DNA from: an uncultured Eubacteriales bacterium
GTDB lineage: Bacteria > Acidobacteriota > Aminicenantia > Aminicenantales > Aminicenantaceae
DNA length: 64,000 bases
Reading direction: 5' to 3'
NCBI GenBank assembly: GCA_964406575.1
Contig: CAYOSH010000009.1
Span: forward strand, 35,014-99,013
The notes beneath the pieces are model-generated. The model was not told where the DNA came from. It ran no database searches and was given only the letters and a program-made list of their open reading frames with translations. Positions 15,001 to 64,000 of this stretch are shown here, piece after piece (positions within the stretch are counted from its first letter, which is position 1; every line of letters starts with the position of its first letter). Made by a program: the position numbers and the translations under genes.

Positions 15001-15001
15001 T

Positions 15002-29287: not shown

Positions 29288-29297
29288 GCAACAATAA

Positions 29298-29838: not shown

Positions 29839-29906
29839 GCATGTCCTAAATAAGAAGATCAATCATTTTTAAAAAGGACAGATTATTAAGAAAGGAGGTG
29901 ACAAGA

Positions 29907-30341
29907 ATGGGTAAGAACTTGAAAAAAGCAGGTGCTTTTTCTTTTATCGCAGTCCTCGTTCTTGCAGCGGCAGCCATCGGTTTTACGAGCCAGCAAACAG
30001 GCATGATGCACCAGAAGGAAATGATGGGGAAGATGGACAAAATGATGGGAAGTTGCAGCCAGATGATGATGAACATGGATAAAATGCTGATGAAGCAGTG
30101 TCCTGCGATGATGGGCATGATGATGAACATGAAAAATATGTCCCAGCAAACCAAAGCCATGATGGAGCATATGAATTCTCTGATGATGGATGAAGAATAC
30201 AAGAATAATGACATGATGAAGAGTTACATGGATACGATTCAGGAACACATGCAGACAATGAGCAATTCCATGCAGAAAGTCATGGAGACCATGCAGAAGA
30301 TGACAGAAAAAGCCTCAGAAATGCAGAAAGAGAAAAAGTAG
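29907..30341 (+). CDS. exported methionine-rich protein (putative Cu(I)/Ag(I) 'sponge')
   Basis: ATG 29907 follows AAAGGAGG. Signal/anchor MGKNLKKAGAFSFIAVLVLAAAAIG. The remainder is extremely Met-rich (MMHQKEMMGKMDKMMGSCSQMMMNMDKMLMKQCPAMMGMMMNMKNM...). Confidence 0.8.
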   Translation: MGKNLKKAGAFSFIAVLVLAAAAIGFTSQQTGMMHQKEMMGKMDKMMGSCSQMMMNMDKMLMKQCPAMMGMMMNMKNMSQQTKAMMEHMNSLMMDEEYKNNDMMKSYMDTIQEHMQTMSNSMQKVMETMQKMTEKASEMQKEKK

Positions 30342-30385
30342 CCGGTCAATGGAGGGTCGGCACCATGGATCGTGTCGGTCCTCAT

Positions 30386-30415
30386 TTGACATACTTTAGG
30401 GGGGTATGCTATTGT
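30386..30415 (+). promoter_or_regulatory. sigma70-like promoter with an embedded CsoR-operator-like site (site C), upstream of csoR
   Basis: TTGACA (30386-30391), 18 nt, TATTGT (30410-30415). The spacer holds CATACTTTAGGGGGGTATG (30390-30408), i.e. ATAC/GTAT half-sites around a G6 tract. Confidence 0.6.
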
Positions 30416-30462
30416 AGTGAGAAGAAAAAGAAAATTGGTCTCTGAGTTTAAAGGAGGTTTTA

Positions 30463-30747
30463 ATGAATGATCAGATAACAACCCACGAAGAAGAACTCGT
30501 CAGGCTCAGAAGAATAGAAGGACAGATTCGTGGAATTCAGAAAATGATCGAGGAGAAAAGGTACTGTGTTGATATACTGACACAGCTTACATCGATCGTA
30601 GGCGCGATAAAGAGTGTTGAGGAGAATATCTTGGAAAGACACCTGAAGGGTTGTGTACATCAATCTTTCATAAAGGGAAGCAAAGAGGACAAAGCAAGGA
30701 AAATAAATGAAGTTGTAGACGTCTTGAAAAAGTTTAGAAGGTATTGA
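30463..30747 (+). CDS. csoR: CsoR/RcnR-family (DUF156) metal-sensing repressor, Cu(I)-sensor type
   Basis: 94 aa. LRRIEGQIRGIQKMIEEKRYCVDILTQL...ERHLKGCV has Cys, His and Cys at the positions of the CsoR Cu(I) ligand triad (x-C-H-C pattern). Confidence 0.85.
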   Translation: MNDQITTHEEELVRLRRIEGQIRGIQKMIEEKRYCVDILTQLTSIVGAIKSVEENILERHLKGCVHQSFIKGSKEDKARKINEVVDVLKKFRRY

Positions 30748-30757
30748 AAGGAAAAAA

Positions 30758-31144
30758 ATGAGCTATTATTTCAATAAAACAATTAAGGGATCGTTTGAAA
30801 AGGTGATTGAAAAGGTGACGGCATCTCTTAATAATGAAGGATTCGGAATTCTAACAGCGATAGATGTGAAAGAAATCCTAAAGAAAAAAATGGATGTCAA
30901 TTTCAGAAAATATAAAATTCTTGGGGCTTGCAATCCGCCTTTTGCCTATAAAGCCCTTCAAGCCGAAGATAAGATAGGAACCATGCTCCCCTGCAATGTC
31001 ATAGTGCAAGAGATAGCGGAGAATGAGGTTGAAGTTGCCGCGGTTGATCCGATCGCTTCGATGAAAGCCATCGATAATCAAGAACTTTTTGGGATTGCAA
31101 CGCAAGTCCAAGAAAAATTAAAGAACATGGTTAATCACCTCTAA
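30758..31144 (+). CDS. DUF302-domain protein
   Basis: 128 aa. SFEKVIEKVTASLNNEGFGILTAIDVKEILKKK...YKILGACNPPFAYKAL...MLPCNVIVQE is the DUF302 pattern. Confidence 0.75.
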   Translation: MSYYFNKTIKGSFEKVIEKVTASLNNEGFGILTAIDVKEILKKKMDVNFRKYKILGACNPPFAYKALQAEDKIGTMLPCNVIVQEIAENEVEVAAVDPIASMKAIDNQELFGIATQVQEKLKNMVNHL

Positions 31145-31173
31145 AGTATCGTTAATTTTAAGGAGCAATTTTG

Positions 31174-33843: not shown

Positions 33844-33858
33844 TTCAGGAGTTTCGTA

Positions 33859-34233
33859 ATGTTAGTGAAAATAATAGTCACAGTTTTTGGTGCCGGAATC
33901 ATAATATTGGTCAATTGGTACTTTTTATTCTCAAGAAGAAAGACTTTTCAAGCTGAGTTAAAGGAGAAGGGAATCCAGGAAATCAAAGTTGTGGTCAAGG
34001 GGGGATACAGTCCGGATACTATTGTTGTGAAAAAGGGGATCCCTGTTCGGTTGTTTTTTTATAGAGATGAAACAGCAGATTGTTCAGATACTATTGTTTT
34101 CGGAGATTTCAAGATAAGAAAAGCCCTTCCTGCTTTTAAAACGACAGTAATTGAATTTACTCCTGAAAAAGAAGGGGAGTATGTGTTTACCTGTGGGATG
34201 GGAATGATGAGAGGAAAGCTCATCGTAAGGTAG
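33859..34233 (+). CDS. membrane-anchored cupredoxin-like domain protein
   Basis: N-terminal TM helix, then GYSPDTIVVKKGIPVRLFFYRDE...EGEYVFTCGMGMMRGKLIV (cupredoxin_1-type C..M motif). Confidence 0.7.
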   Translation: MLVKIIVTVFGAGIIILVNWYFLFSRRKTFQAELKEKGIQEIKVVVKGGYSPDTIVVKKGIPVRLFFYRDETADCSDTIVFGDFKIRKALPAFKTTVIEFTPEKEGEYVFTCGMGMMRGKLIVR

Positions 34234-34331
34234 GCATGAGAAAGAAAAACGGCTAATAAAAAGAAAGAAATTGATGATGTCATGAACTCTGTATACAAGT
34301 TTATCAACTAAATTTAAAAAGGAAAAAGAAA

Positions 34332-35621
34332 ATGAAGAAGTATTTTATACTGTTTCTTGCCATTGTCTTTGTTTTCGAGGGATTTGCAGCTTTCTCTCAA
34401 ACAGAGGTCGATAATACAAATGATGTGCTGAAAGAATTGATCCAGGAAGCATTAGAGAACAATCCCAAGCTGGAGGCTGCTATTCAACGCGCATTATCTG
34501 CTGAAAAAGTCATACCTCAAGCTGGTGCCCTTCCTGATCCAGCGCTTACTTTCGGTTTGTCGAATCTTCCGGTCAATAGTTTTGCTTTTGATCAAGACCC
34601 GATGACAGGCAAAGTGATCGGAGTCATGCAGATGTTTCCTTTTCCGGGAAAATTGTCTCTTGCGACAGATATTGCAGAATACGAGGCTGCAGCAATTAAA
34701 TATCAGCGGGAAGAGATTCGAAACCAAATTATCCAAATGGTAAAACAGACATATTTTGACTTATATGCGACCGATCGAGCCATTGAAACGACTGAAAAAA
34801 ACAAAGCATTAATGGGACAGTTTGTTCAAGTAGCGGAGACAAAATACGCTACGGGATCAGGGCTTCAGCAGGATGTCCTTCGTTCTCAGGTCGAAATCTC
34901 CAAATTAGAAGACGATCTTATCATGTGGCAACAAAAAAGACTCTCTGTAGTCGCTAGGTTGAATGCATTACTGAATAGACCTGTTGATACTCTTGTTGAT
35001 AAGACACTTCCAGAGCTAAAGTTGCCTGATGGTCCAGTAACAATTTTTCCTGCCGAGAAAATAGAGCAGAATAGGCCGCTCTTGAAAGCCTGGAACGAAA
35101 GGATTCAAAAGGCGGAGACGGCCGTTAAACTTGCCGAGCGTGACATTTGGCCCAATTTCACAGTCGGAGCCAGTTACCGGCAGCGCAACCGTTTAGCTGA
35201 TGGCAGGCAGATGACTGACTTTTTTTCTGCCACTGTATCGCTGAACATCCCGCTCTACTTTAAGCGCAAGCAAAAGGCAAAAGTGGCAGAGAAAAAGTTG
35301 GGCTTCAATGCGACCAAGTCTGAGTATGAAAATGTAAAAATCAATATTTTATCGGAGATAAAGAGCATATTAGCTGAACTGGAGCGAAACCGGAAGAGAG
35401 TGGAATTGTATAAGGGCGGCATTCTCCTCCAGGCCCAGCAGTCACTTGAGTCTGCCCAAGCAGGCTACCGCGTGGGAAAAGTTGATTTTTTGACTCTTAT
35501 AAACAACTGGATGATGCTTCAGAATTATGAATTGCAGTATTTCTTTGCGGTATCCAATTTTTATAAAAATTTAGCGAATTACGAACTTGCGGTTGGCGGG
35601 AATGATATCCAAGGAAACTGA
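34332..35621 (+). CDS. TolC-family outer membrane factor (CusC-like)
   Basis: Signal peptide. Two repeated alpha/beta OMF halves, and the typical N-terminus LKELIQEALENNPKLEAA. Confidence 0.8.
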   Translation: MKKYFILFLAIVFVFEGFAAFSQTEVDNTNDVLKELIQEALENNPKLEAAIQRALSAEKVIPQAGALPDPALTFGLSNLPVNSFAFDQDPMTGKVIGVMQMFPFPGKLSLATDIAEYEAAAIKYQREEIRNQIIQMVKQTYFDLYATDRAIETTEKNKALMGQFVQVAETKYATGSGLQQDVLRSQVEISKLEDDLIMWQQKRLSVVARLNALLNRPVDTLVDKTLPELKLPDGPVTIFPAEKIEQNRPLLKAWNERIQKAETAVKLAERDIWPNFTVGASYRQRNRLADGRQMTDFFSATVSLNIPLYFKRKQKAKVAEKKLGFNATKSEYENVKINILSEIKSILAELERNRKRVELYKGGILLQAQQSLESAQAGYRVGKVDFLTLINNWMMLQNYELQYFFAVSNFYKNLANYELAVGGNDIQGN

Positions 35622-35669
35622 ATCGTATGGTTAATTATAGAGAAGAAAAAAACGACATAGGAGTATAGA

Positions 35670-37460
35670 ATGAAAGCAAAAATTTTCGCTATCCTTATTA
35701 TTGGGATTGTTATCGGAGCCACAGCGACCTATTTTATTGCGCCGATAGTAAGAACATCAGGAGGTGAAATTCCTGAAACTGGGGAGCAGCTCTATTCTTG
35801 TGGAATGCATCCAGAAGTCATTTCCGATAAACCAGGAAATTGCCCAATATGCGGAATGAAGCTCACGCCCATTAAAAATACCGCTCAGGATATAGGGCAA
35901 ATACAAACTGGCGAATCAGCACAAGAACGTAAGATCCTCTACTGGCGTGCTCCTATGGACCCCACAGAAATCTACGATAAACCCGGAAAATCCAAGATGG
36001 GAATGGACTTGATACCTGTTTATGAAGGTGAAGAAGCAGGGGGAGCAGGCAGCATAACCATTGATGGTGCTTTACAGCAGAACATGAATCTGCGAATTGC
36101 CAAAGTTGAGCGTCGGGATATCTCCAATGTGATCCGGGCTTACGGTAAAGTCACTTATGCGGAAGATCAAGAATACTCTGTCAATACAAAAATCAGTGGA
36201 TGGATTGAAAAGCTCTATGTCAACACCAGCGGTCAAAAAGTAGAAAAAGGTCAACCTCTATTAGAGATTTATTCGCCTGAATTGGTTTCTACCCAGGAAG
36301 AGTATCTGCTTGCCTTGAACAATTACGAAAAATTGGCTTCAAGTCCATACGAGAGTGTCCGAAAAAGCGCTGAAAAAATGGTCACTTTAGCAAGGGATCG
36401 TCTGGAATATTGGGATATTTCAAAAACTGAGATAGATAATATTGAAAAAACGGGCAAATCCCACCGGTCCATTCTTTTGCAGGCTCCAATAGCAGGCATT
36501 GTCACTCATAAAGCTGTGGTCGAAGGAGATAAAGTCGGTCCTGGCATGGATCTTTTCCTTATCGCGGACCTGAGTAAAATCTGGGTAGAAGCTTCTGTCT
36601 ATGAATCGGAACTCTCTTTCGTTAAAGTCGGACAAAAGGCCGAGCTTGAACTTGATCATCTTTTGGGGCAGAAACTGGAAGGAAAAGTTGATTTTATTTA
36701 TCCTTACCTCGATCAAAAATCGAGGGCAAATAACATCAGATTGGTGTTTAACAATCCTGATCTTTTCTTAAAACCCGATATGTACGCTACCGTTAGCATT
36801 TACAGCCATGCCGCCAGTGATTCATTGGCTATTCCCTCAGAGGCGATCATTCATTCTGGAAAGCGCAAGATTGTTTTTGTTACGAAAGGTGATGGAAAGT
36901 TTGATCCTCGAGAGATAAAAATCGGAGCAGAGTCCGAAGATGGGTACATCCAGGTCATCTCCGGCTTGTTCGATCATGAGGAGGTTGTAGTATCCGGGCA
37001 ATTTCTGTTGGATTCAGAAAGCAGGACCCGGGAAGCCATCGCCAAGATGCGGGCAGTCCAGACACAGAGGACTCAAAAAGTTTCCAAAGAAGAACAGAAA
37101 AGCGCCGCTGAATCTCATGAGATGGAACATGGAGTTGAGTCCGTCGAAAGAGCTCCAGAGACTGAATCACATGAAAAAGTCGAGCACAGTCATGAAGTCC
37201 AAGAACATGAAAAACAGGAGATTGATGCCGATAGGTTATACACCTGTCCCATGCATCCTGAATTCATTACCTCTGATCCTAACGCCAAATGTCCTGATTG
37301 TGGTATGAACCTCGTACCAATAAAGGAATTGGGTGATAAAGTCAATCTTGAAAAGGCTGAATTCTATACTTGTCCCATGCATCCCGATTTTTTAACTACA
37401 GATAGAAACGCTCGTTGTCCGGAATGCGGCATGAAACTGGAAAGGGCAAAAAAGAAATAG
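35670..37460 (+). CDS. cusB: RND periplasmic adaptor (CusB-like) carrying three Cys4 heavy-metal-binding domains
   Basis: MFP core (LLEIYSPELVSTQEEYL..., GIVTHKAVVEGDKVGPG...). Three HMBD modules: YSCGMHPEVISDKPGNCPICGMKL, YTCPMHPEFITSDPNAKCPDCGMNL and YTCPMHPDFLTTDRNARCPECGMKL. A His/Glu-rich linker is also present. Confidence 0.85.
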   Translation: MKAKIFAILIIGIVIGATATYFIAPIVRTSGGEIPETGEQLYSCGMHPEVISDKPGNCPICGMKLTPIKNTAQDIGQIQTGESAQERKILYWRAPMDPTEIYDKPGKSKMGMDLIPVYEGEEAGGAGSITIDGALQQNMNLRIAKVERRDISNVIRAYGKVTYAEDQEYSVNTKISGWIEKLYVNTSGQKVEKGQPLLEIYSPELVSTQEEYLLALNNYEKLASSPYESVRKSAEKMVTLARDRLEYWDISKTEIDNIEKTGKSHRSILLQAPIAGIVTHKAVVEGDKVGPGMDLFLIADLSKIWVEASVYESELSFVKVGQKAELELDHLLGQKLEGKVDFIYPYLDQKSRANNIRLVFNNPDLFLKPDMYATVSIYSHAASDSLAIPSEAIIHSGKRKIVFVTKGDGKFDPREIKIGAESEDGYIQVISGLFDHEEVVVSGQFLLDSESRTREAIAKMRAVQTQRTQKVSKEEQKSAAESHEMEHGVESVERAPETESHEKVEHSHEVQEHEKQEIDADRLYTCPMHPEFITSDPNAKCPDCGMNLVPIKELGDKVNLEKAEFYTCPMHPDFLTTDRNARCPECGMKLERAKKK

Positions 37461-37514
37461 TCAATCTCTCTTCTGATAAGTATGAGAAGGAATCTCTTTT
37501 GAAAAATTGAATGG

Positions 37515-40500
37515 ATGGAACGAAACATGCTGGAAAAAATTATTGAATGGTCTGTTAACAATCGGTTCTTAGTAACAATCGGCATCTTTGCTGTAATCCT
37601 TGCCGGAATTGTGTCAATACAAACAACACCTGTTGACGCCATACCTGATCTTAGTGATGTTCAGGTCATCATCCTCACCGAATATCCGGGCCAGGGGCCC
37701 AATGTTGTTGAAGATCAGGTGACGTATCCCTTAACAACAGCGATGCTGGCTGTCCCGTATGCGACTGTTGTCAGAGGGTATTCCTTTTTCGGTTTTTCAC
37801 TTGTTTACATCCTTTTCGAGGATGGCACTGACCTTTACTGGGCACGCAGTCGAGTGCTTGAGTATTTGAATTTTGCTGCAGGTCGACTGCCACAAGGCGT
37901 AATCCCTCAGCTCGGTCCCGATGCAACAGGGGTGGGATGGGTATATGAATACATTCTTGACGGCGGCGATAAATACGATCTCCAACAATTGAGGTCGATT
38001 CAAGATTGGTATTTACGGTATGAATTGGCCAGCGTTCCGGGCGTTAGTGAAGTAGCCAGCATCGGTGGTTTCGTTAAACAGTATCAGGTCGAGGTGGATC
38101 CTCTTAAACTTCAGGCTTATAACATCCCTCTTCAAAAAGTCAGAATGGCCATAAAACGAAGCAATAACGATGTCGGGGGCCGGCTGATCGAGATGGGTGA
38201 GACAGAGTTTATGGTCAGAGGGCTGGGATATATCAAGAATATCGGTGACTTGAAATCTGTTCCCGTTGGGATGGGACCGAATAATGCACCCATTCTCCTG
38301 AAGGATATTGCCAATATACATCTCGGTCCGGAGCTTCGGCGTGGAATAGCAGAGTGGAATGGAGAAGGCGAAACCGTTGGGGGGATCATTGTCATTCGGT
38401 TTGGCGAGAATGCTTTAAAAGTCATTGATGGAGTGAAGGCAAAGCTAGAGGAATTGAAAAAAGGTTTACCTGAGGGAGTGACTGTGAAAACAGCTTATGA
38501 TCGTTCCTCTTTGATAAAGCGTGCTATTTCGACTCTGAAAGAAAAATTACTCGAAGAGACTATCGTAGTGGCTCTAATCATCATTATTTTTCTCCTCCAT
38601 CTGTCGAGCTCATTTGTAGCTGTTTTTACTCTTCCGCTGGGGGTTTTAATGGCCTTTATTGTCATGAGGGCCCAAGGGCTCAATGCAAACATCATGTCAC
38701 TGGGAGGGATTGCAATTGCCATTGGGGTTATGGTGGATGCCGTTGTCGTCATGATCGAGAATGTCCATAAGCACATGGAAAGGGAGCCATATCAAAAAGG
38801 CAAAGAAAGGTGGGGTCTAATCATCAAGGCCTCAAAAGAGGTCGGACCTGCCTTGTTCTATTCATTGCTGATCATAACTCTTTCGTTTATTCCTGTCTTT
38901 ACCCTGCAGCAGCAGGAAGGAAGACTCTTTAAACCGCTGGCTTATACAAAGACATACGCCATGGCGGCATCTGCCTTCCTGGCCATCACAGTTGTTCCTG
39001 TATTAATGGGGTATTTTATTCGGGGTAAGATTAAACCGGAGGCTAAACACCCTCTTAGCAGAATTCTCATTAGATCGTATCGGCCTGTAATTCATTTTGT
39101 TCTTAAACATAAAATGGCTACAATCCTTGTAGCTGTACTGATTGTTCTTGTAAGCGTTTTCCCCTTCTCCAGACTCGGATCTGAATTTATGCCGCCTCTG
39201 AATGAAGGAGATTTGCTTTATATGCCAACCACTTTGCCAGGAATATCAGTCACGAAAGCCAAAGAGCTCCTTCAGCAAACAGACAAAATCATTGCCAGTT
39301 TTCCTGAAGTTGAATCTGTATTTGGGAAAATTGGACGAGCGGAGACAGCCACAGATCCCGCTCCTCTGACTATGATTGAGACCACCATCATGCTGAAGGA
39401 TGAAAAGGATTGGCGACCAGGAATGACCATAGAAAAACTGACAGAAGAGCTTAACGATGCTGTCCAATTTCCTGGTCTGACCAATGCCTGGACGATGCCT
39501 ATCAAAACGCGGATTGATATGCTGAGCACAGGTATTAAAACACCAGTAGGAATCAAACTTATGGGTCCTGACCTGCAAACTCTTAGCGATCTGGGAGAGC
39601 AGATTGAGGCTATCATACGTCAGGTTCCGGGAACTGGAAGTGTGATCTCGGAAAGGGTCACAGGAGGAAATTATTTAGACTTTATCATTAATAGAGAAGC
39701 GGCTGCACGCTACGGACTAACAGTAGGTGATGTTCAAGATATCATAATGTCTGCTATTGGCGGAATGAATGTAACGACAACTGTAGAAGGATTAGAGCGA
39801 TATCCTGTGAATGTGCGGTATAGCCGGGAATTGCGTGATAATTTACCTGCTCTAAAACGTGTCCTGATTCCAACACCGTCTGGGGCTGAAATCCCTCTTA
39901 GTCAAGTGGCAGATTTCCAGATTAATAAGGGACCTGCAGCCATCAAGAGCGAGAATGCCAGAAGAACAGCATGGCTGTATGTAGATCTACGGAATATTGA
40001 TGTTGGCTCTTATGTCAAAATGGCAAAGAAGGTTGTCGATACAACTGTGGAGTTTCCCCCGGGTTATAGTATCGTCTGGAGTGGGCAATATGAATATATG
40101 CAGCGCGCTCAGGAACGATTACGGCTTGTTGTTCCCGTAACACTATTGATTATTTTCTTGTTACTTTATTTCAATTTTAAAAACATCGGAGAAAGCCTGA
40201 TCATCATGCTGTCTCTCCCTTTTGCTCTGGTCGGTGGAATCTGGCTGATGTGGGTGAGCGGATACAACATGAGTGTGGCTGTGGGGGTCGGCTTCATTGC
40301 TCTGGCTGGCCTTGCTGCTGAAACAGGAGTCGTGATGTTGCTTTATATTGACAATGCCTATAAGGATCGTTTATTGCATGGACAGATGAACACCCGGGAA
40401 GATCTTCATGCCGCAATCGTACATGGAGCCGTGGAACGAGTGCGGCCGAAACTCATGACTGTCAGTACGACTATTATAGGATTGTTACCCATTATGTGGG

Positions 40501-40676
40501 GGCACGGAACCGGTTCACAGGTGATGAAACGTATAGCAGCACCAATGGTCGGAGGTCTGATCACATCCACGTTCCTCACTCTTATTGTGATTCCTGCGAT
40601 TTATTATCTATGGAGAGGAAGAAAATTGAGAGGGGATGAAAAGAAGGATCAGGACTATAAGCATCAAAGCGATTGA
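37515..40676 (+). CDS. cusA: HME-RND inner membrane pump, CusA-type (Cu(I)/Ag(I))
   Basis: Collinear with E. coli CusA as I recall it (TPVDAIPDLSDVQVII...GPDATGVGWVYEY...). The three Met of the CusA Cu site appear conserved (DLLYM, APLTM, RIDM). An alternative start at ATG 37527 fits the family N-terminus. Confidence 0.9.
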   Translation: MERNMLEKIIEWSVNNRFLVTIGIFAVILAGIVSIQTTPVDAIPDLSDVQVIILTEYPGQGPNVVEDQVTYPLTTAMLAVPYATVVRGYSFFGFSLVYILFEDGTDLYWARSRVLEYLNFAAGRLPQGVIPQLGPDATGVGWVYEYILDGGDKYDLQQLRSIQDWYLRYELASVPGVSEVASIGGFVKQYQVEVDPLKLQAYNIPLQKVRMAIKRSNNDVGGRLIEMGETEFMVRGLGYIKNIGDLKSVPVGMGPNNAPILLKDIANIHLGPELRRGIAEWNGEGETVGGIIVIRFGENALKVIDGVKAKLEELKKGLPEGVTVKTAYDRSSLIKRAISTLKEKLLEETIVVALIIIIFLLHLSSSFVAVFTLPLGVLMAFIVMRAQGLNANIMSLGGIAIAIGVMVDAVVVMIENVHKHMEREPYQKGKERWGLIIKASKEVGPALFYSLLIITLSFIPVFTLQQQEGRLFKPLAYTKTYAMAASAFLAITVVPVLMGYFIRGKIKPEAKHPLSRILIRSYRPVIHFVLKHKMATILVAVLIVLVSVFPFSRLGSEFMPPLNEGDLLYMPTTLPGISVTKAKELLQQTDKIIASFPEVESVFGKIGRAETATDPAPLTMIETTIMLKDEKDWRPGMTIEKLTEELNDAVQFPGLTNAWTMPIKTRIDMLSTGIKTPVGIKLMGPDLQTLSDLGEQIEAIIRQVPGTGSVISERVTGGNYLDFIINREAAARYGLTVGDVQDIIMSAIGGMNVTTTVEGLERYPVNVRYSRELRDNLPALKRVLIPTPSGAEIPLSQVADFQINKGPAAIKSENARRTAWLYVDLRNIDVGSYVKMAKKVVDTTVEFPPGYSIVWSGQYEYMQRAQERLRLVVPVTLLIIFLLLYFNFKNIGESLIIMLSLPFALVGGIWLMWVSGYNMSVAVGVGFIALAGLAAETGVVMLLYIDNAYKDRLLHGQMNTREDLHAAIVHGAVERVRPKLMTVSTTIIGLLPIMWGHGTGSQVMKRIAAPMVGGLITSTFLTLIVIPAIYYLWRGRKLRGDEKKDQDYKHQSD

Positions 40677-40787
40677 TGATCTTTGCATTCAATCATCCTC
40701 TCCGGAGTTATAGAGCGTTTACGGCTGCTCACATGTGGGCCTTGAGATAAGGAGTGCTTTTCAAAAAAGGATTCGTTTTAAAATTCA

Positions 40788-40829
40788 TTGACAAATACTA
40801 TAGATATTATAAAATATATATACTATAAG
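40788..40829 (+). promoter_or_regulatory. promoter-like AT-rich element with an internal ATACTATA direct repeat
   Basis: TTGACA (40788-40793) is followed by AATACTATAGATATTATAAAATATATATACTATAAG. ATACTATA occurs at 40795 and 40820. The element lies 28 nt upstream of the ATG at 40857. Confidence 0.35.
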
Positions 40830-40856
40830 AAGCATTTATTTCTAAAGGAGATTTTA

Positions 40857-41480
40857 ATGTCGAAGAAAACATTGCTACTGGTAGTATTTCTTGTTTTTTC
40901 AATGACTCTAGTAATGGTTGCGTTGGACAAGAGCGTGAATGATGAAACCCTGAAATGTCCGGTAAGCGGCAAAGAATTCAAAAAATCTGAAGCCACTCCG
41001 AAATATGAATACGAGGGAAAGACGTATTACTTCTGTTGTGAAAACTGCAAGGATGCTTTCATCAAAGATCCCGAGAAGTACACCATAAAGGAAGAGCCTG
41101 AAGGCCATATGCACCATCAGATGGAAGAACGCACAGAGGAACATGCCGGTCATATGCACGCCGAACAGGATAAAAACGGTATGGTTGTCGATCCCGTCTG
41201 TGGGATGGAGCTCAAAAAAGAAGATGCCAAGGCGACATATGAGCACAATGGCAAAACTTATTATTTCTGCACGGAGGAATGCAAGGATAAGTTCGTTAAA
41301 GAGCCCGGCAATTACATCAGGGCCGATGAAGATATCGTCACCTGTCCGGTGAGCGGTGAGTCGTTCAATAAATCGGAGTTCACCGAATCCATCGATTACG
41401 AAGGAAAGACCTATTATTTCTGCTGCTTGGGATGCAAAGAGAAGTTTGAAAAAAATCCGGAGAAGTACGTTAAGAAGTAG
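40857..41480 (+). CDS. exported protein with three tandem YHS domains and a His/Met-rich linker
   Basis: ATG 40857 after AAAGGAG. Signal/anchor MSKKTLLLVVFLVFSMTLVMVA. The YHS modules end ...YEGKTYYFCCENCKDAF, ...HNGKTYYFCTEECKDKF and ...YEGKTYYFCCLGCKEKF. The linker reads PEGHMHHQMEERTEEHAGHMHAEQ. Confidence 0.8.
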   Translation: MSKKTLLLVVFLVFSMTLVMVALDKSVNDETLKCPVSGKEFKKSEATPKYEYEGKTYYFCCENCKDAFIKDPEKYTIKEEPEGHMHHQMEERTEEHAGHMHAEQDKNGMVVDPVCGMELKKEDAKATYEHNGKTYYFCTEECKDKFVKEPGNYIRADEDIVTCPVSGESFNKSEFTESIDYEGKTYYFCCLGCKEKFEKNPEKYVKK

Positions 41481-41495
41481 TTATATATTTTTTTT

Positions 41496-42476
41496 CTACA
41501 AGATCCCCTTGTCTTTCAGCCAGGCATTGTTGTAGATCGAGCTGAGGTATCGATTGGCTGAGTCTGGAAAAATTGTGACGATTCTGGCATCCGTGTCAAT
41601 TTCCCGAGCTAACTTCAGGCATCCCCACAAGGCGGCACCACTCGATCCTCCGGCCAAGATAGCTTCTTTATTGGCCATTTCTCTGGTCATTTCAAATGCC
41701 TGTTTATCCGTGATTTTGTAAATATCGTCAATCAAGCTGAAATCAACACAGCCGATGAGAAACTCATCCCCCAAACCTTCAAGAAGATATGGCGAAGGTT
41801 TTATAAGTTCTTTGGAATGAAAATAGTCAAAAAAAACAGAACCTGCAGGATCGATTCCGATAACTTTTATGTTCGGATCTTTTTCTTTGAGATATTTGGC
41901 CACTCCACAGATCGTTCCACCTGTGCCGATGCCGGCTAAGAAATAGTCTATTTTTCCCTCCATTTGCTCCCAGATTTCAGGGCCGGTTATCTTGGTATGG
42001 GTTTCGTTATTCTCACGATTGTTGTGCTGATCGAGATAATAGCTATTGGGTGTATCTTTGGCTATCTGCGGTGCAAGGTTGTTATAGCTGCCGGGGGATT
42101 CAGGGGAGAGTGTACTGTCGACCATAATGAGTTCAACATTTAGAGCCTTGAGGAATTTTATTTTTTCAGAACTCAGACTGTCCCTGACGACGATTTTCAA
42201 CGAGTATCCTTTTATTGCGCAAACCATCGCCAAAGCAAGCGCCGTGTTTCCCGAAGAGTTATCCACAATTGTGTCTCCTGGCTTTATCCTACCTTCTTTC
42301 TCAGCCTTTTCGATCATGTGTTTGGCGATCCGATCCTTTATGCTCCCCATGGGATTCAAAAATTCGAGCTTGGCAAAAATATCTGCTCGGACCTCTTTTG
42401 TTATTTGATTTAGTTTGATCAATGGAGTATTGCCTATGCCTTCCAGGATATTATGAAAATATACTTCTTGTGACAT
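41496..42476 (-). CDS. PLP-dependent cysteine synthase / cystathionine beta-synthase family enzyme
   Basis: GNTPLIKL...NPMGSIKDRIA (PLP-Lys motif)...SSGNTALALA...GIGTGGTICG. Confidence 0.85.
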   Translation of the reverse strand: MSQEVYFHNILEGIGNTPLIKLNQITKEVRADIFAKLEFLNPMGSIKDRIAKHMIEKAEKEGRIKPGDTIVDNSSGNTALALAMVCAIKGYSLKIVVRDSLSSEKIKFLKALNVELIMVDSTLSPESPGSYNNLAPQIAKDTPNSYYLDQHNNRENNETHTKITGPEIWEQMEGKIDYFLAGIGTGGTICGVAKYLKEKDPNIKVIGIDPAGSVFFDYFHSKELIKPSPYLLEGLGDEFLIGCVDFSLIDDIYKITDKQAFEMTREMANKEAILAGGSSGAALWGCLKLAREIDTDARIVTIFPDSANRYLSSIYNNAWLKDKGIL

Positions 42477-55773: not shown

Positions 55774-56187
55774 ATGAAAATGAGCAAATCTGGAGCTAAG
55801 ATCTTGGTCATCGATGACGATCCTGATTTCAGGAAAGTAATCTCACTGATGTTAGAATCTAAATCTTACGGTGTTGTTACTGCCAATAATCCCAAGGAAG
55901 CCAAGAAGATCCTTATGACAGAGAAGCCCGACTTAATTCTTCTTGACATTATGATGGATTCTATTTTTGACGGGTATTCTTTGTGTAACGAAATTAAAAC
56001 GTCCGAAGAATATCAAGAATTAAAAGACACTCCGATTATTTTTGTTTCTGCCGTGAAAGAAAAAGCCGGCTCCAGATTAACTTTTGATACAAGTGAACAT
56101 GGCCTTGTGGGACCGGATGACTACATTGACAAACCAGTCAATCCCGAGGACTTGTATATGCGGATCGAAAAATTGCTCAATAGATAA
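55774..56187 (+). CDS. stand-alone response regulator receiver
   Basis: AKILVIDDDPDFRKV...LILLDIMMDS...IDKP. RBS AAAGGAGG. Confidence 0.85.
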   Translation: MKMSKSGAKILVIDDDPDFRKVISLMLESKSYGVVTANNPKEAKKILMTEKPDLILLDIMMDSIFDGYSLCNEIKTSEEYQELKDTPIIFVSAVKEKAGSRLTFDTSEHGLVGPDDYIDKPVNPEDLYMRIEKLLNR

Positions 56188-58011: not shown

Positions 58012-58252
58012 TGGCCATGTTGTTTTTTCTTTTGCATATCAAAAAAGCCTCTGCGCCAGCCATGTGTGTTCGATAGCCTCGTCAAAAGGATTCGATTTAT
58101 CAGCCAGGCATTTATTCCAGGCTTCCGCAAGGAGCTGTATGGCCGCAAGTGACATATCATCGGTTTCTCTTATGGATAAAAAGTTGACTTCGATGATAAA
58201 ATAAGTAAATTTATTAGAAAAGAATAGAATGTACTGGATTTGGAGATTTCTC

Positions 58253-60166
58253 ATGTTTAAAAATTCTCATGGAAACAGGATGTCTTTGTCTGTCATTATG
58301 CTAGTTTTTCTGTGTGTGTTTCTTATCTCCTTCGCTGCTGCCCAAGAGGAGGAGGAATACGAAAAAATAAGTAGTGGAGACTGTATCGAATGCCATGAAA
58401 CAAGCAAGCATGAGACCAAGATTGCAGATGATATTTCCCATTCCATCCATGCTAGTCTGGAATGTCTGGATTGTCATGCAGATAAGAACACTTCACCGCA
58501 CAAAGAGGTTTCAGGCTTCAATGTGGGGTGTGAAGGCTGTCGGGCATGCCATGAAAAGCAGAGCGAAGAGTATATCGCCCATGGACGTAAAGAGTACAAA
58601 GAATGTGTAGACGCCCCATCGTGTGCCGACTGTCATGGTGATCACGATGTTCTGCCCTCTTCAGTCAAACTTTCAAGGACTCATCCAGCTAATCTTCCCG
58701 CTACATGCGGGAAATGCCACGAGGATCTGAACCTGACAAAGAAGTACGAAATTCTGATCGATCATCCCATCGAGATCTATGAGGCCAGCGTCCATGGCCG
58801 GGCGACTAAAGGAGGAATATATGTCGCGGCCACTTGTAACGACTGCCATTCCACGGGTGGAACTTCGCATAAGATCTTGTCGCCTGGATATCCGGAGTCT
58901 TCCATCAATCATTTCAATATCCCCAAAACTTGCGGCAAGTGTCATAAGGGTGTGGAGCAAGATTATTGGGATGGTATCCATGGTCAGTTAGTAAAGCGGG
59001 GTGAATCAGATGCTCCTGTCTGCACGCACTGTCATGGGGAACATGGCATCATTTCTCCCGATGATCCGAACTCGCCGGTGTCAAAAGCACGTGTTGCGGA
59101 AGCCACCTGTTCTCCGTGTCATGAATCCATTACGCTCACAGAAAAGTACGGACTGCAGACCGGACGTCTGACGTCATTTATCGATAGCTACCATGGTTTA
59201 AAGAGCAAGGCGGGAGACCTTCATGTAGCCAATTGTGCATCCTGTCACGGTGTTCATCGGATCCTTCCCAGCTCAGATCCCACGTCCACGATATATCCAG
59301 GCAATTTGAGAGCCACCTGCGGAGAATGTCATCCTGGAATCTCTGCGGCTTTGGCGGCGAGTCCGATACACGATATTAGCGGAAGAGGGCTCCAGACCAA
59401 AGCTGCAGAGATCGTCAAGAATGTCTATATCGCGGCGATCATTATCATTATCGGATTAATGGTTCTCCACTGGCTGATCGATCTTATCCGGCAGATTGTT
59501 CTCGTGATGAAAAGGCCTCAGGTCCGAAGAATGAGGATTGGAGAAGTATGGCAACACACACTGCTCATGATCAGCTTCATCGCGCTTGTGATCTCTGGAT
59601 TTGCCTTGAGATTCAGTAATTCGTGGTTGACACAGATCTTTTTCGGCTGGGAAAGAGGCTTTGAATTAAGAGGACAGATCCACAGGGGCGCAGCCGTTGT
59701 TATGATTTTTGTCACAGTGTGGCACATTATTTACCTGTTCACCCGAAGAGGACGGGTGTTTTTCAGGGATATGATGCCCAAAATGTCTGATTTTAGAGAA
59801 TTTGTCCAGCGAATTCTGTTCAACCTCGGCAGGTCCAAGGAAACTCCCCGGTTCAAACGGTTTAGTTATATCGAGAAAGCCGAGTACTGGGCACTCATAT
59901 GGGGTACAGTGGTCATGATTTTTACAGGACTTTTCCTTTGGTTTGACAATTTTATCGTCCAGATCCTGCCCAAAGGCTTTTTAGATATCACGCTGGTGAT
60001 TCATTATTATGAGGCCATTTTGGCAACATTGGCCATTTTTATCTGGCATTTGTACTCCACAGTGTTTAATCCTGTGGTCTATCCTATGAATCCTTCATGG
60101 CTGACAGGGAAGATGCCCAAAGACATGTACGAACATGAACATTCGGATGCGCCAATAGAGGAATAG
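58253..60166 (+). CDS. 11-heme c-type cytochrome fused to a C-terminal FdnI/HydC-like membrane cytochrome b domain (CbcL-like)
   Basis: Signal peptide, then 11 CXXCH motifs (hand count: CIECH, CLDCH, CRACH, CADCH, CGKCH, CNDCH, CGKCH, CTHCH, CSPCH, CASCH, CGECH). About 5 TM helices follow, with conserved His (WQHTLLMISF, IHRGAAVVMIFVTVWH, VIHYYEA...IWH). The ATG at 58253, behind GGAG, is preferred. Confidence 0.85.
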   Translation: MFKNSHGNRMSLSVIMLVFLCVFLISFAAAQEEEEYEKISSGDCIECHETSKHETKIADDISHSIHASLECLDCHADKNTSPHKEVSGFNVGCEGCRACHEKQSEEYIAHGRKEYKECVDAPSCADCHGDHDVLPSSVKLSRTHPANLPATCGKCHEDLNLTKKYEILIDHPIEIYEASVHGRATKGGIYVAATCNDCHSTGGTSHKILSPGYPESSINHFNIPKTCGKCHKGVEQDYWDGIHGQLVKRGESDAPVCTHCHGEHGIISPDDPNSPVSKARVAEATCSPCHESITLTEKYGLQTGRLTSFIDSYHGLKSKAGDLHVANCASCHGVHRILPSSDPTSTIYPGNLRATCGECHPGISAALAASPIHDISGRGLQTKAAEIVKNVYIAAIIIIIGLMVLHWLIDLIRQIVLVMKRPQVRRMRIGEVWQHTLLMISFIALVISGFALRFSNSWLTQIFFGWERGFELRGQIHRGAAVVMIFVTVWHIIYLFTRRGRVFFRDMMPKMSDFREFVQRILFNLGRSKETPRFKRFSYIEKAEYWALIWGTVVMIFTGLFLWFDNFIVQILPKGFLDITLVIHYYEAILATLAIFIWHLYSTVFNPVVYPMNPSWLTGKMPKDMYEHEHSDAPIEE

Positions 60167-60183
60167 GCAAGGCGAATCTCAGA

Positions 60184-62958
60184 TTATTTGTATCCCAAAA
60201 GCATGCTGTAGATGATCAGGACGATCAGGCTGATTCCGATCGCAAGGAAAGTATAACCGAAAATCTTAACCAGCATCATTTTTTTTGGGGATATTTCTTT
60301 GAGGACGACATCTTTTTTGAGCCTGCCCGATTCCTTCAAGTATTTGTACTCCTCTGGTCGATCTTCCTTATATTCGTCGAGGGGGACCACACCCGTGAAG
60401 ATGACAGGATCAAGAGGGAAAGATTCCGGACGCAAATGCGTGTTGAAGAAATGGATCGTAAAAATAAAGCCGACAGCCAGCAAGGCCTCATCGCTGTGGA
60501 TGATCATGGCCACATTGATGAACCAGCCAGGTAAAAGTTTTGTAAAGAATTCTGGAAACCACAAAATCAATCCGGAAAACCCGATGACTCCAACTCCCCA
60601 GAAGACAGCCATGTAATCGAATTTCTCCCAGTATGTCCAGCGCCCGTATGCTGGTCGAGGGCCCAAACCTAGGAACCACTTTATAGAGCCGATAAAGTCT
60701 TGGAGATCTTTTTTGTTAAACCAGAGAGCTCTGCCTCCGAAGAGCAGCTGACGGATAGTGGCCTTCGTTCTGATCTTTAGTCTGATCATAGAGTAAATGT
60801 GAGCGAAGAAGTATCCGAAAGTGATTGCAGCAGAAAATCTATGGATACGCCCAGCCGCCTCTACTCCACCAAGCATATCGGCGAGAAATCTTGCCCAGGG
60901 CATGCTCGCAAACTTGAGCATCATTCCTGTCAGCGCCAATCCCATAAAACTCAGAATAACAAAGATATGCATGATCCTGTGTTCTGTGGTGAATCGCTGG
61001 ATGTAATACCTCTTGTGGATTTTTTCTGCTTTTCTTTTTTCTTTGAGATGTTTGTAAGAACGGGGCATCCACAATAGGGTGTGAACACCGAAAAAGCTGA
61101 AGACGACAATGAGCAAACCGGTCATAGCCCAGAAAGTAAAATACAGAATTGGATATTTCTTTTTATCGTGATGAGTGGCATGCGTAAGGTAGCCCGTAAA
61201 TCGTCGATTGGCATCTGGGTGGCATTTCTGGCAGGTTTCTATTTCCTTGTTGAATCCCACATGGGAATCCGGGTCATCGACTTTAGTGATGTCATGGGCC
61301 CCATGACAGTCTGAACACCTGGCCGCTTTTAGATATCCCAGAGTGTAAGCCTTTCCGTGGATGGTCTCTGTGTATGTTTTGGCCAGGTCTGCATGACACG
61401 ATCCACATTGAAGGGTGACTTCGGCCATAAACTGATCCAGGTGGATGTCTTTGATTTTATGGGCGGAATGGCAGTCTTCGCAGTTGGGAAGTTTCTCGTT
61501 TGTTTTTGAGACAGTCGGACTGTGGATGCTGTTTACGAATTCTTTGTAGATTCCCTCATGGCATGTGGCACAAGTTGAGGGAAGGTTTTTATGGTTAATT
61601 GATGACCGCTCATCATCAGGTTTCAGTATAAAGTGCGTGCTGTGACAGTCTGTACAGACCGCGCTGGGCAGCAAGCCTTTCTTTATCAGCCCCTGCCCAT
61701 GCACACTGTTTGAATAATCGACGAGAACAGTGCCTTGATCGGTCTTTATGGTGGCCGGACGGCTCAGCTTGCTATGGCAATCTCCGCAGAGTTCTGGGAT
61801 TTTCGACCGGTATGTTTTCGCCAGTTCATTCAGATGGGATAGGACCTTATGTTTCCCGTGGCAGTCCGTGCAATAGGGAGAATCCGGATTCTTCTCAAAA
61901 TAGGCCTGTCCATGACCGCTCTCAAAATAATCTTCGGCGATCTGGGCGTGACAATTAGAGCAATCGACCCGGCCCGCAGTCTCGCAGGGACGATGTCTCT
62001 GCGGGTCGATATCCGCGTGGCACTTCACGCAGGGGATGTTTCTGTGTGCAGATTCTTGAATGTCATCCTTTTTTACAGTGAGGGAAACCGGCTGGTTCTC
62101 GACAGTTTTTATGATGTCCTCTTGTTCATGGCACTTCAGGCATTCCCGGTCTGAGGTTCTCAGAACCAAGCTTGTTCGTCTTATGGTGTGGGGTTGGTGA
62201 CAATCTGTACAAGCGGGAATGGCTCCCGGTTCCTGTTCCCAGAGTTCGCCCTTGATGATCTTGATGTGCACTTCTTCGATCCGGGCATGACATTTTGTAC
62301 AAGTTGCAGCAATATTGCGGGCGGACACTGTGGATCTGGAATTCGTATGGGGGAGAATGAGATGGTTTCCATGGCAATCATTGCAGGTGGCTGTGACGAT
62401 GAGGCCCTGTTTGAACAGCCCCTCTCCATGAATGCTCTGAGAGTAATTTGTCAAAATGTCGTGTTCTGCAATGTTATAAACTCGTGCTACAGGAGCTCCC
62501 TCTCGGTGACATTTGCCACAGAGAACCGGGATATTCATTTTGTATGTCCGGGATCTGATATCGCTCCGGGGAAATATGTCATGATCGCCATGGCACTCTT
62601 TACAGGTCGGGGCGTAAGGGGCACCCCTTCTCAAGGCACTTCCGTGGATACCGGCATAAAATTCTGCATCGGCGACGTCATGACAGATCCCACAATTGAC
62701 ATTTTCCAGTTGTTCTGGATGTGGAAAATCCTTGACATCGGCATCCTGGTGACAGTCGATACAATCCAGGTTTTTATGAACCGACTCTGCAAATCTCTTA
62801 AAATCCACGTAAAGAGAGACTGTCCGTCCCCTTCTCTCTGTCGTCAACTCTCGGTCGGAATGGCAGGCTTCGCAGTCTTCTTTGCTCTGAGATCGCACGG
62901 GCCAAGGGAAAAGAACAAAACCCAGAATGATGAACACGATTGTTTTTTTTACAGTCAT
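60184..62958 (-). CDS. 19-heme c-type cytochrome fused to a C-terminal FdnI/HydC-like membrane cytochrome b domain
   Basis: 924 aa. Signal peptide MTVKKTIVFIILGFVLFPWPVRSQ. 19 CXXCH motifs by hand count. The C-terminal ~330 aa has about 5-6 TM helices and His-containing motifs (EHRIMHIFVILSF, RIHRFSAAITFGYFFAH, IIHSDEA...FTIH). Confidence 0.85.
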   Translation of the reverse strand: MTVKKTIVFIILGFVLFPWPVRSQSKEDCEACHSDRELTTERRGRTVSLYVDFKRFAESVHKNLDCIDCHQDADVKDFPHPEQLENVNCGICHDVADAEFYAGIHGSALRRGAPYAPTCKECHGDHDIFPRSDIRSRTYKMNIPVLCGKCHREGAPVARVYNIAEHDILTNYSQSIHGEGLFKQGLIVTATCNDCHGNHLILPHTNSRSTVSARNIAATCTKCHARIEEVHIKIIKGELWEQEPGAIPACTDCHQPHTIRRTSLVLRTSDRECLKCHEQEDIIKTVENQPVSLTVKKDDIQESAHRNIPCVKCHADIDPQRHRPCETAGRVDCSNCHAQIAEDYFESGHGQAYFEKNPDSPYCTDCHGKHKVLSHLNELAKTYRSKIPELCGDCHSKLSRPATIKTDQGTVLVDYSNSVHGQGLIKKGLLPSAVCTDCHSTHFILKPDDERSSINHKNLPSTCATCHEGIYKEFVNSIHSPTVSKTNEKLPNCEDCHSAHKIKDIHLDQFMAEVTLQCGSCHADLAKTYTETIHGKAYTLGYLKAARCSDCHGAHDITKVDDPDSHVGFNKEIETCQKCHPDANRRFTGYLTHATHHDKKKYPILYFTFWAMTGLLIVVFSFFGVHTLLWMPRSYKHLKEKRKAEKIHKRYYIQRFTTEHRIMHIFVILSFMGLALTGMMLKFASMPWARFLADMLGGVEAAGRIHRFSAAITFGYFFAHIYSMIRLKIRTKATIRQLLFGGRALWFNKKDLQDFIGSIKWFLGLGPRPAYGRWTYWEKFDYMAVFWGVGVIGFSGLILWFPEFFTKLLPGWFINVAMIIHSDEALLAVGFIFTIHFFNTHLRPESFPLDPVIFTGVVPLDEYKEDRPEEYKYLKESGRLKKDVVLKEISPKKMMLVKIFGYTFLAIGISLIVLIIYSMLLGYK

Positions 62959-63076: not shown

Positions 63077-63595
63077 TTATTGCTTTTCAGGTACGGGATG
63101 CTTGACTTTTTCCCATGCTGTGTCAAAGTCGAAGGGCTTGTCGTGGGGATTTTCATGACAGGAAAGGCACTGCGCTTTTATGGCCTCGGCTGAACCGTAT
63201 AGTATCAAACCGTTCTTCACAGCTTCGGCTTGGTCCTTCATGATGCTCATCTTTTTATATTCGCTTCCCGGTCCGTGACAAACTTCGCATGTCACTCCCT
63301 CTTCTTTAAGCTCGGGTGCTTTTTGGGCAAGGGGAGCATGGCATTTTAAGCATTTTTCGTTCTCGGGAGCATCCGCAGCTAGTGCCTTCGCATCTTCCGA
63401 GATGAGAGCTGAAAACGATTTAGAATGTTTCGTGGCCTCCCAGAGGGGATATTGCTGACCCTGTTTTTCACTCTTGTGGCATATTTTGCACTTAGCGGCA
63501 CCCACATAAGTGAAATCCTGACTGAAAAGCATAAAAGGAACAATGATAAGTAAAATGCCGATTAAAAGGACTGTCTTTTTCAACTCATCCTCCAT
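63077..63595 (-). CDS. periplasmic tetraheme c-type cytochrome (cytochrome c554-like family)
   Basis: Signal/anchor, then CKICH, CLKCH, CEVCH and CLSCH; 172 aa. Confidence 0.8.
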   Translation of the reverse strand: MEDELKKTVLLIGILLIIVPFMLFSQDFTYVGAAKCKICHKSEKQGQQYPLWEATKHSKSFSALISEDAKALAADAPENEKCLKCHAPLAQKAPELKEEGVTCEVCHGPGSEYKKMSIMKDQAEAVKNGLILYGSAEAIKAQCLSCHENPHDKPFDFDTAWEKVKHPVPEKQ

Positions 63596-63799: not shown

Positions 63800-64000
63800 T
63801 CATCTGTCTTTTCCTAAGGATTCCACATTTTTTATCAAATTTGTCAGGGCCTCTTCGATATACATAAAGTTGTGAATTCCCGAACTTCCGTCAAGCAGAA
63901 TGTTCTGAAAAGATCTTTCTGTCCCATGTATGAGGTTTTTTTCTTGTTCAGTCAATGTTAATTTCTTCTTTTCTTTCAAAAGGGACGTCAGAGATGCGGA
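63800..64000 (-). CDS. partial CDS, 3' end only (N-terminus beyond the window end); unknown function
   Basis: The minus-strand frame is open from 64000 to TGA (63802-63800): ...KKLTLTEQEKNLIHGTERSFQNILLDGSSGIHNFMYIEEALTNLIKNVESLGKDR*. Confidence 0.4.
   Translation of the reverse strand, partial: SASLTSLLKEKKKLTLTEQEKNLIHGTERSFQNILLDGSSGIHNFMYIEEALTNLIKNVESLGKDR

Follow-up and report, generated by a model that had tools for sequence, protein, structure and literature searches.

Convergent 11- and 19-haem cytochrome b–c fusions of the CbcL/MtoC/MtrH family in an uncultured member of the Aminicenantales

Introduction

CbcL of Geobacter (GSU0274) combines a nine-haem cytochrome c and a dihaem cytochrome b in one protein, a menaquinol oxidase that is required for low-potential acceptors. 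It has six transmembrane (TM) helices and a haem domain whose all-bis-His coordination was shown spectroscopically; it is described as having no iron–sulphur (FeS), flavin or molybdopterin partner subunits, and a 2022 preprint called it unique. Here we describe two genes of similar architecture, called A and B, which converge in a 64,000-nucleotide (nt) stretch of DNA from an uncultured bacterium of the Aminicenantales (assembly GCA_964406575.1, contig CAYOSH010000009.1, positions 35,014 to 99,013 of the forward strand). We refer to this whole stretch as the window, and coordinates given with no other source are positions in it. Both proteins belong to the already catalogued CbcL/MtoC/MtrH family, and the locus reveals no new kind of system; their probable role is to pass electrons between the quinone pool and the periplasm.

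The breadth of this family has been described before. Zhong and Shi (2018; PMC6295460) listed CbcL/MtoC/MtrH homologues in 15 phyla, with lengths of 416-1034 residues and 3-23 CX2CH motifs. Most had six TM segments, five-TM members also occurred, and the TM histidines were conserved. In their table GSU0274 has six TM segments and a motif spacing of 23,25,23,24,29,28,43,28. Their Table S2 also contains Cabys_319 of Caldithrix abyssi (WP_006928296.1), a protein of 920 residues with six TM segments and 19 CX2CH motifs spaced 37,23,30,28,45,28,30,23,37,23,30,28,45,28,29,25,30,28, together with similar entries from Ignavibacteria, Bacteroidetes, Omnitrophica and marine sediment. Cabys_319 and the other 19-motif entries are catalogued only.

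MtoC and MtrH, from Dechloromonas aromatica (Daro_1404), Gallionella and Rhodoferax ferrireducens (Rfer_4073), are members of the same b–c fusion family and are often clustered with multihaem cytochromes. They differ from A and B in having nine haems and about 655-673 residues, and in adjoining mtoAB/mtrAB porin-cytochrome genes, which were not found at the A/B locus. MtoC has been proposed to reduce quinone in Fe(II) oxidation. A recent preprint on multihaem cytochromes from peat makes no mention of cytochrome b or CbcL.

Two further systems resemble parts of A and B. FdnI, the cytochrome b556 of Escherichia coli Fdn-N (1KQF_C), is a separate subunit of 217 residues that docks to FdnGH, whereas in A and B an extra helix joins the cytochrome b domain to a multihaem cytochrome c in the same polypeptide. 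MtrA, unlike B, has no cytochrome b anchor; it is a soluble decahaem protein within an outer-membrane porin.

Results

Two convergent genes with 11 and 19 haem motifs

The two genes and their parts are as follows.

58253..60166, + strand: gene A, 637 residues, fusion of an 11-haem cytochrome c with an FdnI-type cytochrome b; CbcL/MtoC/MtrH family, five-TM class
58253..58342, + strand: predicted signal peptide of A, MFKNSHGNRMSLSVIMLVFLCVFLISFAAA, read from the sequence, with a putative AAA/Q cleavage site
58343..59398, + strand: periplasmic domain of A with 11 CxxCH, from the motif count and invariant His columns
59399..60163, + strand: membrane domain of A, linker helix TM0 and four-helix FdnI-type cytochrome b, from the 1KQF_C profile and fold match
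60184..62958, - strand: gene B, 924 residues, 19-haem cytochrome c with FdnI-type cytochrome b, six TM helices
62161..62886, - strand: haem block 1 of B, residues 25-266, haems 1-8, from self-BLAST and the spacing repeat
61159..62160, - strand: haem block 2 of B and three further haems, residues 267-600, haems 9-19, from self-BLAST and alignments to A and to 9-haem proteins
60187..61158, - strand: membrane domain of B, TM0, FdnI-type four-helix cytochrome b, cytoplasmic helices and an extra C-terminal TM5, from profile, fold and codon check

The stop codons of A (60164-60166) and B (60184-60186) are separated by 17 nt. There are exactly 11 CxxCH motifs in A and exactly 19 in B; the variants CxxxCH, CxxxxCH and CxxCK number zero in A, and B likewise has no variant motifs. 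These counts and the open reading frame (ORF) coordinates agree with an earlier note on this DNA, which had described a convergent pair with 11 and 19 haems and 17 bp between the stops.

In the ORF listing, which follows a longest-ORF rule, the stop-to-stop frame of A runs from 58229 to 60166 on the + strand, and a database protein identical to A begins at 58280 and has 628 residues. From the sequence, the ATG at 58253 appears to be the best start: it is preferred because GGAG lies 7 nt upstream, because the signal peptide then has a charged n-region (K, R), and because the resulting 637 residues match the length of the closest homologues.

A frameshift or assembly error as the source of the motif counts is excluded by two observations. 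A second assembly (L003) is 100% identical to the window across 6160 bp that include both genes, and the counts are kept among homologues, 11 motifs in 119 of 120 for A and 19 motifs in 114 of 120 for B, where those with fewer are shorter proteins. The counts in the earlier note therefore hold.

No terminator was found between the convergent stops (60167..60183), and in predicted folding the junction has no advantage over shuffled sequence (z about 0.1 for either strand). The lack of a terminator-like hairpin there implies that the A and B transcripts may overlap in antisense at their 3' ends.

Membrane domains related to FdnI

After its haem domain A has five TM helices, a linker helix followed by a four-helix bundle. 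B has six (residues 603-643, 658-682, 698-731, 776-800, 811-841 and 891-922), the last of which is extra with respect to A; the earlier note had given about five for both. PF01292 recognizes A with 47 bits, above its cutoff of 30.1. When a profile of the C-terminal domains of both protein families was compared with the PDB, FdnI (1KQF_C, E 4.7e-7, FdnI residues 3-210) was the sole significant sequence. The profile aligns FdnI H18, H57, H155 and H169, which we take to be the haem ligands of Fdn-N, with conserved histidines of A and B. In A these are encoded by codons at 59555, 59681, 60002 and 60047, each of which was checked, and in B they are H664, H706, H821 and H836, with codons at 60967, 60841, 60496 and 60451. 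The predicted ligands are distributed as in FdnI, TM1 and TM2 each carrying one and TM4 two, although sequence identity to FdnI is just 16-17%.

AlphaFold2 models lead to the same relative. The model of A has a mean pLDDT (predicted local distance difference test) of 80.4 and that of B 75.5, and Foldseek matched their four-helix fold to 1KQF_C with TM-scores on the target of 0.76 and 0.77, respectively, both at probability 1.0. In these Foldseek searches of the PDB the cytochrome b domain alone was matched, and the haem domains gave no significant match. In the best 150 representatives of the family, three of the four ligand columns are His without exception; in the fourth column 145 have His and the other five a gap. 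Both the proposal that A and B are multihaem c/FdnI-type dihaem b fusions like CbcL and its expectation of conserved His ligands are borne out by these data.

Two additional membrane histidines had looked conserved between A and B, one in TM0 and the other at the cytoplasmic end of TM2, and we considered whether they mark a third b haem. Among the same 150 representatives, however, 125 have His at the TM2 position, while at the TM0 position 61 have His and 56 have Met. The two do not co-vary, since 18 of the 61 proteins with the TM0 His have no TM2 His, and as a joint haem site they were rejected. Because the extra TM2 His and the TM0 His/Met are neither universal nor correlated, we read the domain as dihaem in both proteins. 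The fifth, TM2 histidine, though common in the family, is absent from FdnI.

Haem domains and an internal duplication in B

The first six motifs of A and B share the order CxxCH, C[IL]DCH, CxxCH, CxxCHGDH, CGKCH, CNDCH, just as the earlier note described. Its further proposal, that later motifs alternate between CxxCH and Cx[DE]CH-x2-H-x-I, holds in part but is broken by motifs 9-11 of B.

The pattern had been taken as a sign that B grew by duplication of haem pairs. The unit is larger. In a self-BLAST, residues 25-264 of B align with residues 269-507 at 32.5% identity (E 1.8e-48), and the motif spacing 37,23,30,28,45,28,30,23 recurs as 37,23,30,28,44,28,30,25,30,28. Haems 9-19 are colinear with the entire haem domain of A and with the entire haem domain of 9-haem CbcL-type proteins. 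Full-length A aligns with residues 267-869 of B (29% identity, E 8e-86), and its first eight haems also align with the first eight of B. The internal alignment and the recurring spacing indicate growth by an 8-haem block rather than by haem pairs, so that B is a tandem duplication of such a block placed ahead of an A-like 11-haem arrangement (8 + 8 + 3).

Both periplasmic domains have a supply of possible distal ligands. At least ten non-motif histidines are invariant in A, which suggests that most or all of its haems are probably bis-His. The B family conserves 21 non-motif histidines for 19 haems, and one Met (M141) is conserved in 95% of B homologues. This pattern fits bis-His electron-transfer haems in both proteins, as in CbcL.

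More distant signatures are faint. The nearest to the haem domain of B is TIGR03508 (MtrA/DmsE decahaem), with 86.7 bits spread over four stretches (cutoff 192), accompanied by a weak PDB match to a 333-residue chain of 6R2Q, which we take to be MtrA (chain A). The NapC/NirT/NrfH families of CymA-type quinol dehydrogenases, in which a single N-terminal TM anchor precedes a tetrahaem domain, give weak partial matches to A and B (TIGR03153, 21 bits; TIGR02161, 34 bits; cutoffs 134 and 310), so that neither protein is one of them. PDB 28pb_A is the best sequence match of both haem domains, and we set it aside as uninformative, since it is not close to the CbcL-type representative P0298 either (E 3e-5).

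Relation to CbcL and spread of the family

Like CbcL, each protein consists of a signal peptide, an N-terminal periplasmic multihaem cytochrome c and a C-terminal HydC/FdnI-type dihaem cytochrome b in a single polypeptide. CbcL has nine haems in 619 residues, compared with 11 in 637 for A and 19 in 924 for B, and comes from a different phylum; in its six TM helices it resembles B, whereas A has five. Representatives with nine haems, six TM helices and a spacing like that of GSU0274 share 34-40% identity with B over about 620-650 columns (E 1e-113 to 1e-138); between A and representatives of this kind the figure is 26-28%. By motif spacing B corresponds to Cabys_319. Judged from tabulated motif and TM positions, its layout is essentially identical to that of B, with an offset of 6 residues.

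To see how common such fusions are, we searched the cytochrome b domain profile against protein clusters at 50% identity, and obtained 3414 clusters at E <= 0.001 and 1049 at E <= 1e-30. Haem counts among the best 150 clusters range from 0 to 22, although some of the low counts may come from fragments. They peak at 11 (42 clusters), 9, 7, 13 and 19. Nineteen haems occur in five of these clusters and 22 in one, whose representative looks like 11 + 11.

Two family representatives, P0359 and P0388, have alternative domain orders. In one (615 residues) the cytochrome b domain is N-terminal (match at residues 12-227) and there are 16 haem motifs; in the other (1126 residues) about 470 residues free of haem motifs precede 11 haems.

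In species-representative genomes, the membrane domain of B was found at 80 loci, with 52-83% identity in the best tblastn segment. These loci belong to Aminicenantes, Calditrichota, Bacteroidales and Prolixibacteraceae, Chlorobiota/Ignavibacteriales, Latescibacterota, Eisenbacteria, Krumholzibacteriia, Zixibacteria, KSB1, Acidobacteriota, Gemmatimonadota and Phycisphaerae. Two isolates, Maribellus sp. YY47 and Mangrovibacterium lignilyticum, are among the sources. Orthologues of B from Caldithrix and Calditrichaceae metagenome-assembled genomes are 69-73% identical to it over the full length. Nineteen motifs are present in 63 of the 70 full-length orthologues from these loci, in more than ten phyla; such 19-haem orthologues have lengths of about 924 residues. 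This number, and the published range of 3-23 motifs with 19 in Cabys_319 (PMC6295460), contradict the earlier view that 19 haems on a b-type anchor are exceptional.

A cytochrome cluster that extends past the window

The genes on either side of A and B, and the kinases found next to B orthologues elsewhere, are listed here.

55774..56187, + strand: receiver-only response regulator (PF00072, 78.8 bits), upstream of the kinase; syntenic in L001 and L002
56386..58011, + strand: sensor histidine kinase (Pfam HAMP, HisKA and HATPase_c), CxxCH at residue 120 and Cx4CH at residue 163
63077..63595, - strand: tetrahaem c554-like periplasmic cytochrome, 172 residues (PF13435, 44.8 bits), 118 bp upstream of B on the same strand
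63800..64000, - strand: NapC/NrfH-like membrane cytochrome, 667 residues, 17 CxxCH and one Cx4CH, with its last 66 codons in the window; complete in L003
L001 13841..15445, L011 3606..5243, L012 636..2294 and L045 16305..17945: kinases beside B orthologues, CxxCH and Cx4CH conserved

The haem-sensor kinase and the tetrahaem cytochrome are those that the earlier note had placed beside the pair, and the CxxCH/Cx4CH motifs and the PF13435 match confirm what they are. The two kinase motifs lie between its two TM segments, a region predicted to be periplasmic, and both are kept in kinases beside B orthologues of Aminicenantes, Bacteroidales, Calditrichota and Chlorobiota. This suggests that a dihaem c-type kinase that senses redox state is a conserved companion of this cytochrome cluster.

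The tetrahaem protein is a likely soluble partner of B; a homologue occurs no more than 10 kb from B in 26 of the 80 loci from other genomes. At 23 of the 80 a second b–c paralogue lies within the same distance, with 9-17 haems and in any orientation, always without the C-terminal TM helix. Recurrent neighbours of B in Bacteroidota are a six-haem membrane cytochrome, a seven-haem cytochrome, a small cytochrome b and a 305-residue protein with a signal-peptide-like N-terminus. Promoter-like sites, which are weak evidence, closely precede A (58173-58211) and the tetrahaem gene (63647-63618).

L003 (1..9796) carries the contig past window position 64000. In order, it encodes the 667-residue cytochrome with its 18 motifs, CcsA, ResB, an octahaem cytochrome, a decahaem cytochrome and a protein of 623 residues. 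The first of these has a NapC/NirT-type N-terminal region (PF03264, 33.9 bits against 24.1). The octahaem protein, of 408 residues, is of the HAO family (6H5L_A, E 2e-33), and the decahaem protein, of 711 residues, consists of two similar halves and has no PDB relative. The cluster, A and B included, contains about 70 c-haem sites. Its HAO-like, c554-like and NapC-like members form a trio that recalls the hao-cycA-cycB module of nitrifiers.

L001 is the nearest relative of this contig, with a B that is 88% identical and synteny on both sides. Nucleotide homology to it ends exactly at the stop of B and resumes at the stop of the kinase (window 58012..60183, L001 12776..13840). In place of A, L001 has an unrelated ORF of 246 residues with no Pfam match, and a possible 18-residue relic of the A C-terminus beside B (E 0.012). 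Because A is absent from L001 despite synteny on both sides, it is, on this comparison, an accessory cassette at a variable site. Together with the candidate outer-membrane and periplasmic partners that lie outside the window, its absence from L001 speaks against the earlier idea that the pair and its neighbours form a self-contained electron conduit.

The rest of the window

In the window, further ORFs with at least two haem motifs are confined to the kinase, the tetrahaem gene and an ORF of 144 codons (6024..6458). Scans of the window for tRNA genes and Rfam families found nothing. Positions of about 28000..41500 have low GC content (0.37-0.44) and strong positive GC skew. Its genes include those for a P-type ATPase of CopA type, with YHS and HMA domains (31171..33843), for a membrane-fusion protein that resembles CusB and has heavy-metal-binding domains (35670..37460), and for a resistance–nodulation–division (RND) pump of the AcrB/CusA kind (37515..40676); the stretch looks like a copper/silver efflux island. 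A block of higher GC content (7468..23828; 0.50-0.53 over 8-16 kb) contains genes of anaerobe-type metabolism. Their products are an old yellow enzyme (OYE)-type flavin oxidoreductase that also has a fused pyridine-nucleotide disulphide oxidoreductase domain, a methylmalonyl-CoA mutase, both subunits (A and B) of a hydantoinase/oxoprolinase, and an aldehyde:ferredoxin oxidoreductase.

Discussion

Taken together, the architecture, ligands, fold and family relationships lead us to think it probable that A and B are paralogous inner-membrane bc cytochromes of the CbcL/MtoC/MtrH family that transfer electrons between the quinone pool and the periplasm, most likely by oxidizing quinol and exporting the electrons. 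A Sec signal peptide would export each protein, leaving a periplasmic chain of apparently bis-His c haems, 11 in A and 19 (8 + 8 + 3) in B, if all sites are occupied. This chain would return through the linker helix TM0 to the FdnI/HydC-type four-helix bundle. There, two b haems would be stacked across the membrane, with a quinone site at the cytoplasmic face by analogy with FdnI, and by way of them electrons would cross the membrane, linking the menaquinone pool with the c haems. Periplasmic partners would accept electrons from the c-haem chain or donate them to it, and among these partners the presumably co-transcribed c554-like tetrahaem protein is the first candidate; beyond it may come the 18-haem NapC/NrfH-like protein, the HAO-family octahaem, the decahaem and the putative beta-barrel. 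By analogy with CbcL, in what is probably an anaerobic organism, menaquinol would be oxidized and electrons would flow outward. Protons would then be released on the cytoplasmic side, making the step non-conserving, as has been argued for CbcL. The dihaem kinase and the response regulator probably set expression according to the redox state of the periplasm.

Several points weigh against this interpretation. With PF01292, B on its own reaches 24.7 bits, below the cutoff that A passes, so that the Pfam test proposed in the earlier note succeeds for A but fails for B, although most B homologues carry a precomputed PF01292 assignment. The best NCBIfam match of the cytochrome b domain is TIGR01583, with 50.2 and 31.9 bits against an equivalog cutoff of 115.85. 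The link from A and B to CbcL itself rests on proteins that look like GSU0274 in motif spacing and on the published table, and the orthologue groups of A and B are known from sequence alone. The direction of electron flow cannot be read from the sequence, and MtoC of Fe(II) oxidizers is in the same family. The HAO-family octahaem nearby allows a purely periplasmic role in nitrogen-oxide chemistry. Finally, the outermost candidate partner, the 623-residue protein, is a weak barrel assignment, with an outer-membrane protein (OMP) beta-barrel match below threshold (24.9 bits against 28.7) and GSU2204-family matches.

The alternative that fares best reverses the flow. A and B might be quinone reductases that deliver periplasmic electrons to menaquinone at the cytoplasmic face, as part of a redox loop that generates protonmotive force like Fdn-N; the electrons could come from outside the cell, from Fe(II) or reduced humics in the manner of MtoC, or else from the HAO-family octahaem by way of the c554-like tetrahaem, following the logic of hao-cycA-cycB. 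FdnI, with the same fold and ligands, works in this direction, MtoC provides a precedent among its relatives, and nothing in the sequences tells oxidases from reductases. Moreover, the presence of HAO-like (6H5L_A), c554-like and NapC/NrfH-like genes together on the contig makes quinone reduction locally plausible. However, the conserved neighbours of B do not include the HAO-like gene, which has no homologue above threshold in the 80 other loci, and CbcL, the sole genetically characterized member, is a quinol oxidase. The closest homologues, moreover, are named Aminicenantes, a group of anoxic habitats described as fermentative. We therefore consider the reverse direction unlikely, if worth keeping in mind.

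A somewhat less credible alternative concerns the route rather than the direction. If the 19 haems of B were arranged in a roughly linear way, they could form a wire that spans the periplasm and connects directly to an outer-membrane cytochrome or beta-barrel with no shuttle. In MtrA, 10 haems span about 8 nm, and scaling from this gives a length of about 15 nm for B. The MtrA/DmsE-like signature of the haem domain, the strict conservation of both 19 haems and protein length across phyla, and the decahaem and putative beta-barrel genes upstream on the same strand are all consistent with a wire. On the other hand, the two copies of the 8-haem block could be packed next to each other, and the evidence for a beta-barrel is below threshold. 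The most conserved neighbour, moreover, is a small tetrahaem protein, which suggests that a shuttle is in use; a direct wire thus seems doubtful to us. The same degree of doubt attaches to a broader speculation, in which B would be a length-conserved inner-membrane wire that crosses most of the periplasm and connects the menaquinone pool directly with an outer-membrane cytochrome/beta-barrel module. The shorter five-TM paralogue with which B recurrently occurs, A here and proteins of 9-17 haems elsewhere, would act with it as two quinone-coupled gates of different potentials or opposite directions under control of the dihaem kinase. Such an arrangement would amount to a widespread form of extracellular electron transfer in Fibrobacteres–Chlorobi–Bacteroidetes (FCB) bacteria and Acidobacteriota distinct from Mtr and Pcc.

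It is very improbable that A and B serve a formate dehydrogenase or a hydrogenase as its membrane subunits: some database names ("cytochrome b subunit of formate dehydrogenase") and the choice of TIGR01583 as best NCBIfam match point that way, but the TIGR01583 scores are far below the cutoff, gene calling in the 10 kb flanks, both here and in L001-L004, gave no gene for a molybdopterin, FeS or NiFe subunit, the cytochrome b domain is fused to a periplasmic redox partner of its own, and CbcL is described as lacking such accessory subunits.

We therefore return to quinol oxidation by bc cytochromes of the CbcL/MtoC/MtrH family as the most probable function of A and B. Such fusions have been studied experimentally only in Geobacter CbcL, and yet outside Proteobacteria they are one of the commonest means by which bacteria may connect the quinone pool with chains of haems in the periplasm. 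The 19-haem form is nearly unchanged across more than ten phyla, and its orthologues in the cultured Caldithrix abyssi, Maribellus sp. YY47 and Mangrovibacterium lignilyticum make its function directly testable. For the organism itself, a cluster with some 70 haems in a group usually described as fermentative points to a capacity for respiratory or extracellular electron transfer.

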